The position numbers were made by a program, and so were the translations under genes. 64,000 bases of DNA from a bacterium (GTDB lineage Bacteria; Planctomycetota; Planctomycetia; Planctomycetales; Planctomycetaceae). The stretch is taken from contig WGMU01000100.1 of assembly GCA_016124895.1 (NCBI GenBank), positions 1 through 64,000 on the forward strand. Direction: 5' to 3'. Positions within the stretch are counted from its first letter, which is position 1, and every line of letters begins with the position of its first letter. Of this stretch, positions 5,048 through 12,871 are shown in pieces. The notes under the pieces were generated by a model, which was given only the letters and a program-made list of their open reading frames with translations, ran no database searches and was not told the origin of the DNA.

Positions 5048-6553
5048 TCAGTCCTTGTTCCCGATCTTGTGCGAGTTCAGGTAGCCGATTGGGTCATGAC
5101 CGTCGTAGAGCACGCCGTCGATAAAGTCAGACGTTGGCTCTTTGTAGCCGTCGGTTTCCCAAGGCACATCGCTTTCAGCCAGCAGTCCTTCACTGACAAG
5201 CATTCGGGCCGCCTGCTTGTAGATGTCCGGGCGGTAAACCTGCTTTGCAGTTTCGTCGTACCACTCGGCCGGCTTTGGCTCGGTGATCTGTCCCCAGCGT
5301 CGCATCTGCGTCAGGAACCAGACGCCGTCCGAGTACCAGGGATAGGTGCAGTGGTACTTGAAGAAGACGTTAAAGTCCGGCATCGGCCGTTTGTCAGTCT
5401 TCTGGAAGAAGAAGAAGCCGGTCATCGAGTTTTTGATGACGTCGTAGTCCGCTCCGACGTAATCCGGTCGGCTGAGAATGCGGGCTGCTTCTTCGCGATT
5501 GATCAGGTCGCCCGCGGCGTTTGTTTCGTCGAGCCACTGGCCGGCACGGATCAGAGCTTTCACGACCGCCAGGTGTGTGTTTGGATTCTCGTCCGCCCAC
5601 TTCTTCGTGACGCCGAACACTTTCTCCGGATTGTTCTTCCAGATGTCGTAGTTCGTTGTGACCGGAACTCCGATGCCCTTGGCGACGGCCTGCTGGTTCC
5701 ACGGTTCGCCAACGCAGTAGCCCTGAATGTTTCCGGCTTCCAGCGTTGCCGGCATCATCGGTGGCGGCGTGACGGAGAGTTCAACTTCCGCGTCGGTCCG
5801 GCCACCGATATCGGTCTTCGTGTAGAAGCCGGGATTGATACCGGCAGCAGCCAGCCAGTAACGCAACTCGTAATTGTGCGTCGACACAGGGAAGACCATG
5901 CCCATCTGCAGCTTCTCGCCGCTGGCCAGCTTCTCCTGCACGATCGGCTTAAGCGCGTCGGCGGTAATCGGATGCTTCGGCGTTGGTGATTTCAGGTTCT
6001 CATCATGCTGCTGCATCTGTTCCCAGACGCTGTTCGAGACCGTTATGCCGTTGCCGTTGAGGTCCATGGTGAAGGCGGTGATCACGTGAGCTTTCGTGCC
6101 GAAACCGATCGTCGCGGCAATCGGCTGTCCCGAGAGCATGTGAGCACCGTCGAGTTCACCATTGATGACGTTGTCGAGCAGCGTCTTCCAGTTCGGCTGA
6201 GCGATGACTTCAACCTGCAGCCCCTCGTCTGCGAAGAAGCCTTTTTCGCGGGCGATCACAATCGGAGCACAGTCGGTCAGTTTGATGAACCCGAATTTGA
6301 GTTCGTCTTTTTCGAGGTTCAGCAGCGTCTTCGGAGCGGCTGTCGCTGGAGCTTCTGGCGATTCGGTAACCGACTCACTGGCGGCGTCTTCCGTTGTTCC
6401 TGATTCGGCAGCGGCAACTGAAAGATCATCCGGGAGATCGAGTACCAGACCAGAGTCACTACTGCCGCATCCGGACAAAGCCCCGATAAGCAGAAGGACG
6501 GGTAACAGACTCAAACGCGTCGACGCGAGGAGATGATGAAGAAACGGTTTCAT
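5048..6553 (-). CDS. ABC substrate-binding lipoprotein, NrtA/CmpA (nitrate/nitrite/cyanate/bicarbonate) family. Start chosen at the internal ATG (6551-6553) that precedes a signal peptide and lipobox.
   Basis: ORF 5048..6667 minus. [31 protein letters not shown] is a lipoprotein signal. An acidic linker follows, then [22 protein letters not shown] and [11 protein letters not shown], which are NrtA/CmpA-like motifs. ~500 aa with a C-terminal extension, as in cyanobacterial NrtA. Confidence 0.8.
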
Positions 6554-6900
6554 GGCAACAGACTGCTCCGAAATTATTCGATGGAAACTCCACTCAGGTC
6601 GTCCTGCGCTGACGGACCAGAGTGGTTCGGAGCGAAAAGCAAGCAATGTGCCGACGTGGTGATTCACGTAGCAAAACCGAAGTGCAGTCGGCAGACCACG
6701 TGCGTTTTCCCTGCTGGACTGTGGGCAACCACGTGGAACATCGGTCGCAGCGAATCTATCCGTGCTGCGAATGCAGGCAGCGAAGAGCCAATCGGCAGGC
6801 AGGCCGATTGAAAGCGACTCTTCGCGCAGAGAAACGCGGACCGGATCACGGAGCAGTCGCCGAAAATGGCTTACGTGTTCGGATTCGTAAGTCGACGTGA

Positions 6901-6984
6901 CGGAGGTCGGGAGTCTTTTTCAGTCAGACCACCTTCGCAATGGTTTCCGCTCGCTCCGAAAAAGACTCCCGACCCTTGCCGGCC
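6901..6984. repeat. MITE-like element, copy A: 15-bp perfect terminal inverted repeats GTCGGGAGTCTTTTT ... AAAAAGACTCCCGAC (6906-6920 / 6959-6973)
   Basis: Direct reading of the sequence. ~85% identical over ~84 bp to a second copy at 9763-9846. Lies in the intergenic region between the globin stop and the nrtA-like upstream region. Confidence 0.7.
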
Positions 6985-7026
6985 TTCGGTCTTCCCTCTT
7001 GCTGGTCTGTAAAAGAGGAACGCGAA

Positions 7027-10428: not shown

Positions 10429-10585
10429 AACCGAATTCCGGACTCACGTACGGGAGAGACTCGTCCCAGGGTGGCTGGAGGAGGGAGGTACGAGCGAAAC
10501 TCCGGACTCTGTATTCCGTGCTTTCGCGTTCCGGGGCTTCCTTCGCAGGCTCAGCCAGTCCCAGCCACTAACTCCCGCCCGACAT

Positions 10586-10792
10586 TCAGATTGAAGGACT
10601 GATGATCGAGCAACTGCCTTCCACGGCTCGCAGCGTCAGAAACGCGAGGCGGGTCAGCGTCGGGCGGTCGTAACCTTCCAGACGTTGCCGGACATCCGGT
10701 CGCAGAAAGCCGGGCTCCGCGGAGAGGATGAAGTGAGCGAGTTCACGGTCGGTCATCTCGGCAATGCTGAAGGCAGAGGTGCTGGGGGCCAT
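10586..10792 (-). CDS. Small hypothetical ORF (68 aa) between the cytochrome gene and the flavoprotein gene; coding status uncertain
   Basis: Collinear with its neighbours and located in a 390-bp gap. No recognisable motif. Confidence 0.2.
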   Translation of the reverse strand: MAPSTSAFSIAEMTDRELAHFILSAEPGFLRPDVRQRLEGYDRPTLTRLAFLTLRAVEGSCSIISPSI

Positions 10793-10819
10793 GATTGGGG
10801 CTCCTGTCGGAAGTGACGG

Positions 10820-12871
10820 CTACAGGTAAAAGGCTGCGAAGATGTGAAACGCGACGAGGATCGGAAACGGCCAGAAACAGACGATGTGCAGCAGCGTCAG
10901 ACGTGGCCGCCAGAGGCGAATCTGTCGCTGCAGATCACCAGAAGCCCGGCCTTCCATGGCCGTGACGGCGCCAGTCAATGCACCGGCAACGCTGAGTCCC
11001 AGAAACGTCGTCATCAGCCAGAAGTTAAGATGACTGCCCAGACGCATTCCCGTATGAGCGATCAGCCCGGCGACCGTCAGCGTGCCCAGAATGCCGTGCC
11101 CGGCCCGCCACCAGCCGAAGTTCAGAAACTGCAACCGACTCCAGCGCTTCCGCAGTGAGAGCAGCAGCGCGGCGACAGACAGACCGATCAGCGAAAAGCC
11201 GGTGACCTGTTTCCAGAAGGCGTCGCGCCAGACGGCCTCAAACTGGTACCACGCCGATTGAACAGTGCTCGACCAGGCGATCGGCCCGAACAGCAGAATC
11301 ACCCCGACGAGCACCGCCGCAGACAACGACGCGGCCAGCAGCCAGCGCGAGCCCGGTGTTTCAACAACGGGTTCCGACGGAGCGCCGGCCAGCGCGGCCA
11401 GTTGCGGCCGACATGACCCGCAGACGGTCGACGCTCCGGTGGCTGCCGCAAGAGCATCGACCGACCGGCAGCCGCGTTCGCAGGCTGCGGTCAGCTCACC
11501 GCGAGAAACGCCAACGCAACTGCAGACGATCGCACCTGCCGGCCACGCCGCGACGTCCGCGTTTTCCGGCGGTGGCCATAACGAGCCCTCCGACTCGAAA
11601 CGCCGCCGCTGTTTGCCCCGGATACGCCGCTGTTTCGTGATTGCTTCCTGCACGCGCGGCAGTTCAGGAAACGGTCCGACGCCGACGGCACCGACGAGTT
11701 TCTGCCCGCGGAGGATGAGTTTGCGGTATGCCTCGTCATTCCGAATCGTCAGCGCCTGCGCGTCGCTGACGTCGAGATAGTCGCCGCACAGCGAGACATC
11801 GACACCCAGCAGTTTGAGCCGCGTCGAGACGTCACTGCCGGTAAACGCGGCGTGTTCCGCGTTCAGCGTCGCCGCGACGACGTCAGCCATGTGGTAACCC
11901 GGCGCCGCGAGACCGTAGATCGTGTCGCGATGCAGAGCGCACTCACCGATCGCGTAGATATTCGGGTCTGATGTTCGCAACTGGTCATCGACCACGATGC
12001 CGCCGCGCGGTCCGACGTCGAGACCAGCCTCTCGCGCCAGTTCGTCACGCGGTCGAATCCCCGCTGCAATGACGATCAGATCGACGTCGAGCGTTCCGTC
12101 TGGAAACTCAATGATCCGCCGCTCTCCGTCAGCGCGAATCGCCTGCGTCTTTTTCTGCAGATGGACGCGTACGCCGAGCGATTCGATCAGCTCGCGCAGC
12201 AGCGCCGCTCCGTCGTTGTCGAGTTGCCGCGGCATCAGCACGGACGCCATTTCAACAACGTGCGTTTCCAGTCCGAGGTCCAGCAGCGCGCGGGCAGCTT
12301 CGAGGCCCAGTAGTCCGCCGCCGATCACTGCGGCCGACTTCGCCGACTGACCGAACTGTTTGATCTGCTCGACATCATCAACGGTCCGGTACAGAAACAC
12401 GCCCGGCAGATCGCGCCCTTCAATCGGCGGCACAAACGGACTCGACCCCGTGGCCAGAACCAGCGTGTCGTACGGAACACAATCCAGCGATCGCGAGCGA
12501 ATCGTCTTCGCTTCGCGATCGATGGCCAGCACCGGATCGCCGGTGCGCAGTTCGATGCCGCGGTCCTCGTACCAGTCCCGGTCAGCAAATGTCAGCGATG
12601 CCGCAGTTTCCTCATCGAAGAACGAAGTCAACCGCACGCGGTCATATGCCGGTCGCGCTTCCTCACCAAACGCAATCAATCGATGCGAACGCTGCAGATG
12701 CCGGTCGCAGAGTTTCTCCAGCAGCCGAAAACCCACCGGCCCGTTGCCGACAACAACGATACCTGCCAGCGATAAAGAGGCATTCGAGGAGTTCGCTGTC
12801 GATGCACCGACCGCAGCCGATATCTGGGATTCGGCGACACTTTCCTGCGGGGAACTCAGTGCCACGACCAT
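10820..12871 (-). CDS. Fusion of a NirB/NasB-N-terminal-like FAD/NAD(P)-binding oxidoreductase and a BFD-like [2Fe-2S] domain to a C-terminal 5-6 TM His-containing membrane domain; it lacks a sirohaem nitrite-reductase domain. Start set at the internal ATG 12869-12871.
   Basis: Rossmann motif VVGNGPVGFRLLE, second dinucleotide site AAVIGGGLLGLEAA, YAIGEC, then a BFD-like Cys cluster (CSCVGVSRGELTAACERGC...CGSCRP). Hydrophobic helices with His follow (LIAHTGMRLGSH, LLHIVCFWPFPILVAFHIFAAFYL). Confidence 0.65.
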   Translation of the reverse strand: MVVALSSPQESVAESQISAAVGASTANSSNASLSLAGIVVVGNGPVGFRLLEKLCDRHLQRSHRLIAFGEEARPAYDRVRLTSFFDEETAASLTFADRDWYEDRGIELRTGDPVLAIDREAKTIRSRSLDCVPYDTLVLATGSSPFVPPIEGRDLPGVFLYRTVDDVEQIKQFGQSAKSAAVIGGGLLGLEAARALLDLGLETHVVEMASVLMPRQLDNDGAALLRELIESLGVRVHLQKKTQAIRADGERRIIEFPDGTLDVDLIVIAAGIRPRDELAREAGLDVGPRGGIVVDDQLRTSDPNIYAIGECALHRDTIYGLAAPGYHMADVVAATLNAEHAAFTGSDVSTRLKLLGVDVSLCGDYLDVSDAQALTIRNDEAYRKLILRGQKLVGAVGVGPFPELPRVQEAITKQRRIRGKQRRRFESEGSLWPPPENADVAAWPAGAIVCSCVGVSRGELTAACERGCRSVDALAAATGASTVCGSCRPQLAALAGAPSEPVVETPGSRWLLAASLSAAVLVGVILLFGPIAWSSTVQSAWYQFEAVWRDAFWKQVTGFSLIGLSVAALLLSLRKRWSRLQFLNFGWWRAGHGILGTLTVAGLIAHTGMRLGSHLNFWLMTTFLGLSVAGALTGAVTAMEGRASGDLQRQIRLWRPRLTLLHIVCFWPFPILVAFHIFAAFYL

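Follow-up and report, generated by a model that had tools for sequence, protein, structure and literature searches.

An NAD(P)H flavoprotein–cytochrome b, undecahaem cytochrome c and haem-Cache module beside a nitrate-type importer in a planctomycete, possibly a defence against reactive nitrogen oxides

What might a set of haem and redox proteins be doing beside a nitrate-type importer in a planctomycete? The question is raised by contig WGMU01000100.1 (Planctomycetaceae), of which a stretch of 64,000 nt was analysed (the window; coordinates are its forward-strand positions). Its open reading frame (ORF) list contains an unbroken run of minus-strand genes from 12928 to 123. An initial annotation had described collinear minus-strand genes linking an ATP-binding cassette (ABC) importer to a haem and redox set, and every ORF that it listed is present at its position, while the permease, both ATPases and a tandem-GAF gene fall outside the interval it named (5048–12871). 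Most of its family assignments stood up to hidden Markov model scans; those of a NapC/NrfH-like cytochrome and a c'/P460-like lipoprotein did not. We report that three of the genes, encoding a NirB-like flavoprotein with a cytochrome b domain, an undecahaem cytochrome c and a periplasmic haem-c lipoprotein, form a conserved module. Judging from its sequences, this module probably moves electrons of NAD(P)H through the membrane as a defence against toxic nitrogen oxides.

The ORF list was read and its proteins scanned with Pfam and NCBIfam models. One genome per species was scanned with the cytochrome; at least 540 stretches were confirmed, and 80 loci with 10-kb flanks were retained. Core-trio counts refer to the 68 species-level loci with sequence on both sides, and counts of the cytochrome b domain to the 72 with enough sequence upstream. 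Neighbours were counted by tblastn with the window proteins and by clustering of all neighbouring ORFs in the retained loci. Residue conservation was read from alignments of 74 flavoproteins, 104 cytochromes, 49 globins and 43 lipoproteins.

A three-gene unit conserved across phyla

The flavoprotein–cytochrome b fusion, the undecahaem cytochrome and the lipoprotein, which carries a haem-c Cache domain, are syntenic in 68 of 68 informative loci from at least seven phyla, their hosts belonging to the Planctomycetota, Verrucomicrobiota, Kiritimatiellota, Gamma- and Betaproteobacteria, Poribacteria, Acidobacteriota and Binatia. In all 72 loci that could be scored, the gene order puts the cytochrome b domain immediately upstream of the cytochrome, with a median gap of 31 nt between the flavoprotein and cytochrome matches, and in 71 of them the domain is joined to the NirB-like part. 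In a Bryobacterales metagenome-assembled genome (L044, 5153–11335) the b domain stands alone as a protein of 191 aa between a major facilitator superfamily (MFS) transporter adjacent to NasA and the undecahaem cytochrome, and fusion to the NirB-like part is therefore not universal. A globin gene accompanies the trio in 53 of the 68 loci and a truncated haemoglobin (trHb) replaces it in six more, giving one or the other in 59. This arrangement is far beyond chance. Its invariant unit consists of the flavoprotein–cytochrome b, the undecahaem cytochrome and the haem-Cache lipoprotein, and a globin of NO-reactive type is a frequent fourth member. Chlorite dismutase (Cld), globin and cytochrome had initially been put forward as the set to follow across genomes; this grouping gives way to the present one, Cld being found in only one of the 68 loci. 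The neighbourhood as such is conserved in related genomes, and this synteny supports a functional coupling of its genes.

Nitrogen metabolism recurs around the unit, at least one nitrogen-assimilation gene lying within 10 kb in 41 of the 68 loci. An NrtA-type binding protein, with permeases and ATPases, is encoded within this distance in 30 of the 68. Sixteen loci have molybdenum nitrate reductases resembling NasA/NasC, 15 a CysJ-like flavoprotein, 11 a 4Fe-4S/DmsC fusion and 11 a NirA-family protein (879 bits, above its cutoff). Other neighbours are an Alginate_exp porin (12 loci), a small cytochrome c of class I, encoded between lipoprotein and globin (12), a tandem-GAF protein (8), an ANTAR response regulator (7) and a regulator of the Fe-S-type Rrf2 family whose best model is NsrR (7). 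The gene identities, cofactor motifs, predicted topology, invariant histidines, synteny and association with nitrate genes and NsrR-like regulators are all direct observations. The window itself holds neither NasA nor NirA, and its edge comes just past the GAF gene. The lack of a nitrate or nitrite reductase remarked on in the initial annotation thus holds within the window but not beyond it, where the module of relatives abuts NasA and NirA.

Two of these neighbourhoods have further features of their own. A Puniceicoccales operon (L051, L059, L061, L067, L073, L077) comprises an NsrR-like Rrf2 regulator, the lipoprotein, a small cytochrome c, a trHb, the flavoprotein and the cytochrome. Elsewhere (L010, L014, L026, L055, L066 and others) NasA occurs with a fused 4Fe-4S/DmsC-like membrane protein, and the NirA-family protein with the CysJ-like flavoprotein; such pairings represent an unusual electron supply for assimilatory enzymes.

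We tentatively favour a role for the locus in nitrogen-oxide and chlorite defence during nitrate assimilation, with a cytoplasmic arm of globin and Cld and a periplasmic arm fed by NAD(P)H through two b-haems. We infer which way electrons flow, which proteins act as partners, what the substrate is, and any catalytic role of the cytochrome or lipoprotein. Electrons of NAD(P)H would enter the flavoprotein by way of FAD and a [2Fe-2S] cluster of BFD type, and would cross to the periplasmic face through the two b-haems of its C-terminal domain. The 11-haem cytochrome would relay them to the haem-c Cache lipoprotein, and this periplasmic arm would bind and reduce a reactive nitrogen oxide, most likely nitric oxide (NO), possibly nitrite or hydroxylamine. 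On the cytoplasmic side the flavoprotein could plausibly re-reduce the adjacent globin, which would convert NO and O2 to nitrate, and Cld would destroy chlorite, the product of the assimilatory nitrate reductase acting on chlorate taken up by the nitrate importer. It is rather doubtful, although worth stating, that the flavoprotein–b fusion, the HAO/NrfA-related cytochrome and the Cys-less haem-Cache protein together make up an unrecognised NAD(P)H-driven transmembrane periplasmic reductase of NO, nitrite or hydroxylamine, present in hundreds of aerobic nitrate-assimilating species.

Table 1. Features of the locus, in order of transcription (positions in the window)
Feature	Position	Strand	Remarks
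Flavoprotein, cytoplasmic N-terminal part	11393..12928	-	Pfam and NCBIfam TIGR02374; database gene call starts at 12871
Flavoprotein, C-terminal five-helix membrane domain	10820..11392	-	predicted di-haem cytochrome b, two His pairs
68-aa ORF within a 392-bp spacer	10586..10792	-	probably no conserved gene
Membrane-anchored undecahaem cytochrome c	8923..10428	-	transmembrane helix, 5-haem domain, disordered linker, 6-haem domain
Periplasmic monohaem-c lipoprotein, Tll0287-like / sCache_heme	8220..8846	-	PF11845
Clade-2 (dimeric-type, cytoplasmic) chlorite dismutase	7555..8118	-	Pfam and PDB-sequence matches
Cytoplasmic single-domain 3/3 globin	7027..7449	-	Pfam Globin; HGbI/neuroglobin-like, related to Vgb and the Hmp globin domain
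Terminator-like hairpin, T-run and 17-nt inverted repeat	6905..6982	-	just 3' of the globin stop codon
NrtA/CmpA-family substrate-binding lipoprotein	5048..6667 (likely ATG start 6556)	-	NMT1_2; lipobox LSGC
NrtB-type ABC permease	3225..4829	-	BPD_transp_1; charged insertion of ~230 aa after transmembrane helix 1
Nitrate-type ABC ATPase (ntrCD)	2321..3205	-	TIGR01184, 293.9 bits, above the 291.8 cutoff
Second nitrate-type ABC ATPase (ntrCD)	1133..2083	-	TIGR01184, 314 bits, above the cutoff
Tandem-GAF protein	123..1076	-	GAF_2 6e-18; position 3' of the transporter conserved in relatives

From NAD(P)H to the periplasm

The full flavoprotein (10820–12928) begins with an FAD- and NAD(P)H-binding Pyr_redox_2 domain (9e-55), followed by Rubredoxin_C, a BFD-type [2Fe-2S] domain (Fer2_BFD, 3e-10) and a membrane domain of about 190 aa. 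The NirB model TIGR02374 aligns over positions 1–463 of 794 and scores 485.9 bits, below its cutoff of 578 because the sirohaem half is absent. Public databases (JGI, NCBI) name the protein NirB; the N-terminal domains of NirB are present, while a membrane domain stands in place of the C-terminal NIR_SIR sirohaem/[4Fe-4S] domains. Homologues carry the public name "nitrite reductase large subunit" (P0123, P0158, P0221, P0227).

A His-bearing membrane domain had been claimed for this protein, and the claim was borne out. Across the 74 flavoproteins four His residues are invariant within the C-terminal 190 residues, forming two pairs (H99/H113 and H169/H183 of the fragment), each with a spacing of 14 residues. 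In an AlphaFold model (predicted local distance difference test, pLDDT, 94.5) the domain has five helices in a cytochrome b561/NOX-like fold, the His pairs lying on two of them. Pfam matches are weak (DUF4405, Ni_hydr_CYTB), with DUF4405 exceeding its cutoff in one homologue. A search of 1.84 billion representative proteins returned only 556 clusters, with the domain always C-terminal and mostly in proteins of 640–690 aa; it is a dedicated domain of the NirB-like flavoprotein family. It is predicted to hold two stacked b-haems, through which electrons of the cytoplasmic [2Fe-2S] cluster would reach the periplasmic side of the membrane.

A spacer of 392 bp (10429–10819) separates the genes of flavoprotein and cytochrome here, and relatives have a gap of 8–75 nt or an overlap of 4 nt. 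The 68-aa ORF of this spacer was considered as a conserved gene and set aside: it matches no Pfam or NCBIfam model, its only tblastn match is in its own contig, and none was found in related loci.

The cytochrome carries ten CXXCH motifs and one CX4CH, hence eleven haem sites, behind an N-terminal transmembrane (TM) helix. The membrane anchor described earlier is therefore present, the count of about ten haems is corrected to eleven, and the NapC/NrfH-like N terminus is withdrawn: a Pfam scan at E≤0.01 listed no member of the NapC/NirT family, and the protein has eleven haem sites where those proteins are tetrahaem. NrfA, the name under which NCBI lists this protein and many homologues, was likewise rejected, as no CXXCK motif is present and the NrfA model NF008339 (cutoff 595 bits) scores only 14.8. 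Every one of the eleven haem motifs is invariant among the 104 sequences, as are eleven His residues outside them. In the structural model (pLDDT 84) the TM helix leads into a domain with five haems, which a disordered linker joins to a second domain with six. Its best Foldseek match is HAO, at an E value of only 4e-3. A profile search aligns haems 9–11 with NrfA haems 1–3 at similar spacing, places CLKCH opposite the CWNCK of NrfA, and shows the residues aligned with the NrfA KxQH motif to be unconserved in the cytochrome family. At the level of fold, the nearest kin of the C-terminal domain are HAO, IhOCC, ONR and NrfA. The cytochrome is a distant member of the HAO/NrfA structural superfamily, and neither an NrfA nor a NapC/NrfH.

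Homologues number in the thousands, at 43–79% identity, and are named "cytochrome c3 family protein" or "ammonia-forming cytochrome c nitrite reductase"; the names "NrfA" or "ammonia-forming cytochrome c nitrite reductase subunit c552" are attached to P0001, P0030, P0031, P0035, P0041, P0077, P0086 and P0112. Within the linker, residues ~195–245 form an insertion of low complexity, rich in Arg, Ser, Thr and Pro (pLDDT <50), which is common only to the nearest relative.

These two proteins provide the setting for the strongest rival to nitrogen-oxide defence, a split transmembrane NAD(P)H:nitrite/hydroxylamine reductase that would make ammonium in the periplasm, its hexahaem domain replacing the sirohaem half of NirB and the globin mopping up leaked NO. 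The flavoprotein is NirB precisely minus its catalytic half, the C-terminal domain of the cytochrome has its nearest relatives in HAO, IhOCC, ONR and NrfA, with haems 9–11 in the register of NrfA haems 1–3, and neither NirA nor NirB lies near the transporter in the window or in its closest relatives. The cytochrome, however, lacks CXXCK and a conserved KxQH, falls far below the NrfA cutoff, and has a His count that fits bis-His ligation of every haem; the NirA and CysJ encoded beside the module in 11 loci would be redundant; and an ABC importer delivers its anion to the cytoplasm, not the periplasm. On balance we consider a split reductase unlikely.

The third member of the unit, the lipoprotein, had been described as a c'/P460-like monohaem protein, an identity that fails: neither cytochrome c' nor P460 is matched, and the sole Pfam match is the Tll0287-like family PF11845 (68.5 bits against a cutoff of 24.1), making it a haem-Cache protein. 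Its single haem motif, CWSCH, lies near the C terminus, with C175, C178 and H179 invariant in the 43 sequences and the lipobox Cys27 conserved. Beyond the lipobox and the CXXCH no Cys is conserved, while Met99 (in PAQMFR), His182 and many polar residues are invariant. The Cys/His axial ligation of Tll0287 and of the P. putida protein was considered and does not apply, the Cys ligand being missing in this subfamily. Single-sequence and profile PDB searches intended to map the Cys ligand of Tll0287 (5B82) gave no usable alignment (best E 0.68). A 2026 preprint reclassifies DUF3365/Tll0287 proteins as haem-c Cache domains, sCache_heme (PMC12889525). Those with an exchangeable distal ligand bound NO with a tightness close to that of H-NOX, their off-rates being H-NOX-like and their spectra like those of cytochrome c'; the stand-alone Cys/His proteins resemble redox carriers (PMC12889525).

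A carrier function is also the core of a second alternative, in which the module is a general route of NAD(P)H-driven electron export, to a periplasmic cytochrome c pool, metals or oxidised targets, and its link to nitrate reflects shared regulation or redox balancing. A membrane-anchored chain of 11 haems is reminiscent of wires that span the periplasm, 12 loci have a small class-I cytochrome c as an insertion, 27 of the 68 loci have no nitrogen genes within 10 kb, and redox roles have been proposed for stand-alone sCache_heme proteins. Export is nevertheless distinctly unlikely, in our estimate: the globin or trHb in 59 of 68 loci, the NsrR-like and ANTAR regulators and the nitrogen genes in 41 of 68 are hard to explain without nitrogen-oxide chemistry, and the many invariant polar residues of the lipoprotein are typical of a ligand pocket.

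The Cache domain could also belong to a sensor of periplasmic NO or redox state, with the cytochrome and the flavoprotein keeping its haem ferrous or relaying a signal inward to a GAF/PAS-kinase/GerE control of uptake. The sCache_heme proteins are mainly a sensor family that binds NO, and genes for GAF, PAS histidine kinase and GerE proteins follow the transporter in relatives. The lipoprotein, however, lacks an output domain; to serve a sensor with a dedicated NAD(P)H dehydrogenase and eleven haems would be costly; and two-component genes are missing from most module loci. We regard sensing as highly improbable.

Globin, chlorite dismutase and importer

The cytoplasmic arm of the proposed defence begins with the globin, a match to Pfam Globin (PF00042) and, at 72 bits, to the globin domain of PRK13289. 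Its best PDB match is Methylacidiphilum HGbI (3S1I, 5e-25), followed by neuroglobins, Vgb (8e-14) and Hmp (1.5e-10). Tyr29, Gln50 and the proximal His82 are conserved in at least 90% of the 49 sequences, and the first two presumably occupy positions B10 and E7, as in HGbI and Vgb. With the TyrB10/GlnE7 pocket of NO-reactive globins, the protein remains the candidate NO dioxygenase that it was first taken to be.

Cld is a protein of about 187 aa without a signal peptide, matching PF06778 at 38.1 bits (cutoff 25) and, over its full length and at 50–60% identity, the solved enzymes of P. aeruginosa (9GTJ, 8e-67), NwCld (3QPI, 1e-56) and Cyanothece (5K8Z, 1e-52). His116 and Arg129 align with His114 and Arg127 of NwCld, which we take from the Cld literature to be the proximal His and the catalytic distal Arg. 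By length, similarity and these two residues it appears to be a bona fide clade-2 enzyme, in agreement with the earlier lineage-II call.

The distribution of Cld differs from that of the trio. Among the 68 species-level loci it occurs in one (L050), and it is confined to a small subclade of Planctomycetota. The two closest relatives of the window, with cytochromes 75% and 62% identical, have neither Cld nor the 68-aa ORF; their gene order is porin, flavoprotein, cytochrome, lipoprotein, globin, binding protein, long permease, two ATPases and GAF, then PAS histidine kinase and GerE regulator. The closest Cld proteins are 63–72% identical, and the five closest Cld contexts all adjoin the same nitrate-type transporter. 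One context (L085) copies the window, with lipoprotein, Cld, globin and binding protein; in L086/L087 and L088/L089 the order is lipoprotein, Cld and binding protein, the globin being missing; and L090 has NrtABCD genes, a porin and Cld with the haem module absent. Cld is a lineage-specific accessory between the lipoprotein and globin genes, recurrently tied to a nitrate-type importer and able to fill the globin slot. Neighbourhoods of cld with nitrate-type ABC transporters (group 11) and with NasA were already published by Barnum and Coates in 2022 (PMC9751292), who argued that chlorate can pass through such transporters and that (per)chlorate is reduced in vitro by nitrate reductases of the assimilatory type (PMC9751292). 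Detoxification after uptake of nitrate or chlorate, one of the roles first suggested for the locus, fits these published neighbourhoods (PMC9751292) as well as the NasA, NirA, ANTAR and NsrR-like neighbours in relatives.

The importer is predicted to be of the NrtABCD type, as claimed, with ntrCD ATPases, an ntrB-type permease and an NrtA-type binding protein all present. The binding lipoprotein matches NMT1_2 (9.6e-96) and is nearer to NrtA (2G29, 6e-54) than to CmpA (2I48, 2e-38). The permease has ntrB (TIGR01183) as its best model, at 145.7 bits, below the cutoff of 209 because of its insertion. About 230 charged, coiled-coil-like residues follow TM1 in this protein of 534 aa, and BPD_transp_1 covers residues 326–524 only; the long form recurs in Planctomycetota and Verrucomicrobiota (L002, L004, L012, L023, L053, L071, L072, L083–L086). 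Nitrate or nitrite, rather than cyanate, bicarbonate or chlorate, is the putative substrate, because NasA and NirA adjoin orthologous transporters in relatives.

A gap of 470 bp separates the globin from the transporter genes and contains a hairpin with a T-run (6982–6969). A perfect 17-nt inverted repeat (6905–6921 and 6958–6974, GGTCGGGAGTCTTTTTC and GAAAAAGACTCCCGACC, with a 36-nt loop) overlaps this terminator-like hairpin. Taken as a whole, the promoter and terminator scans gave no enrichment over shuffles, and an Rfam scan of positions 1–14000 at E≤1 returned only a chance match to a snoRNA model, with no riboswitch or ANTAR-type leader. Division of the haem module and the importer into two transcription units is plausible from the sequence. 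The link between importer and haem set on which the initial annotation had built is accordingly upheld in part: the two lie within 10 kb of each other in 30 of 68 loci, but are probably transcribed separately. The arrangement could represent a nitrate-assimilation accessory island of two units, a redox module (12928–7027) and an NrtABCD-type importer with the GAF gene (6667–123), a description that we put forward with the reserve due to a possibility slightly short of even.

Genes for GAF, PAS histidine kinase and GerE proteins lie 3' of the transporter in several loci (L083, 18409–21360; L084, 18215–21275; L085; L086; L088), in an order that recalls NreABC and is only a lead. The GAF protein of the window has no detectable similarity to any solved structure, NreA included.

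Upstream of the module, also on the minus strand, lie genes for a 162-aa secreted protein without a family match (13198–13686) and an 1161-aa DUF1583/PD40 protein (13714–17199). Close relatives have the Alginate_exp porin in the place of these two genes, and the left flank is therefore rearranged in this genome.

Several observations weigh against a defence against nitrogen oxides, the reading that we favour, and keep it tentative. In 27 of the 68 loci no nitrogen gene lies within 10 kb, nine of the 68 lack a globin, and NasA and NirA are both missing from this window. The NsrR-like Rrf2 regulator scores 121.8 bits, below the NsrR equivalog cutoff of 182. The invariant His residues outside the haem motifs equal the haems in number (eleven), so that all haems may be bis-His and the cytochrome may be a pure wire without a catalytic site. 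With its invariant Met99, the lipoprotein may be a six-coordinate His/Met carrier in place of an NO binder, and the stand-alone sCache_heme proteins that have been assayed, all of the Cys/His type, bound NO weakly (PMC12889525). Nitrate or nitrite is the putative ligand of the binding lipoprotein by context, and the roles proposed for the members of the module are drawn from sequence and synteny.

Relation to known systems

If nitrogen-oxide turnover by the module is real, it would be a widespread and unrecognised conversion of NO, nitrite or hydroxylamine in aerobic Planctomycetota, Verrucomicrobiota, marine and freshwater Proteobacteria and sponge symbionts, and the path from NAD(P)H through [2Fe-2S] and two b-haems to eleven c-haems would be a new wiring principle. 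The public names NrfA and nitrite reductase large subunit do not survive comparison with the families they invoke, and surveys of dissimilatory reduction of nitrate to ammonium or of NirB based on names would therefore over-count. The recurrence of Cld in the globin slot beside a nitrate-type importer supports chlorate co-metabolism as a selective pressure on nitrate assimilators. Cultured carriers of the module exist, among them Stieleria marina K23_9, Aporhodopirellula rubra CECT 8075, Neorhodopirellula pilleata Pla100, Roseiconus nitratireducens, Blastopirellula marina and Cerasicoccus maritimus. Literature searches on Tll0287/DUF3365, undecahaem cytochromes, DUF4405, and nitrate assimilation with multihaem proteins, haemoglobin or NsrR turned up no account of the module.

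The nearest functional parallel is the narK-bjgb-flp-nasC cluster of B. japonicum, in which a single-domain globin and an NAD(P)H flavoprotein are joined to nitrate assimilation for NO detoxification (PMC4724949), Flp having been proposed to serve Bjgb (PMC4724949). Both systems encode such a globin and flavoprotein with genes of nitrate uptake or assimilation, and removal of by-product NO is proposed for both. The flavoprotein described here differs in being fused to a di-haem membrane domain, and the undecahaem cytochrome and haem-Cache protein add a periplasmic arm. The importer is of the ABC type, whereas NarK belongs to the MFS, and NasA lies outside this window and within 10 kb in 16 related loci.

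In its electron path the fusion resembles NOX (NOX5, PDB 5O0T), ferric reductases and MsrQ, where a cytoplasmic flavin/NAD(P)H part and two stacked b-haems on two TM helices carry electrons outward. Unlike NOX and MsrQ, it uses an unrelated dehydrogenase, of NirB-type Pyr_redox_2 with [2Fe-2S]; its membrane domain is nearer to prokaryotic cytochrome b561/DUF4405, with no Ferric_reduct match listed; and the acceptor would be a multihaem cytochrome c and not O2, Fe(III) or MsrP. The cytochrome differs from HAO, IhOCC, octahaem nitrite reductase and NrfA in having neither CXXCK nor a conserved KxQH and no significant match over the whole protein. An N-terminal pentahaem domain and a membrane anchor further separate it from the HAO/NrfA superfamily, and by its His count it possibly has no open haem site.

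The haem-Cache lipoprotein shares one covalent c-haem and a periplasmic location with Tll0287/sCache_heme proteins and with cytochrome c'. It is set apart from cytochrome c' and P460 by a Cache fold, which is neither a four-helix bundle nor a P460 fold, and from Tll0287 by belonging to a subfamily without the Cys ligand and by being a stand-alone lipoprotein wired to a reductase chain. Cld, for its part, resembles other clade-2 enzymes and those of cld group 11 (PMC9751292) in being short, lacking a signal peptide and adjoining nitrate-type ABC transporter genes; unlike in the published group 11, cld lies inside the haem module here and in L085–L089, directly after the haem-Cache gene. Globin with flavoprotein in nas clusters, Cld beside nitrate transporters and NOX-like electron export are thus already known; what appears to be new is the conserved module of flavoprotein–b, undecahaem cytochrome and haem-Cache protein, whose members are widely misnamed NirB and NrfA.

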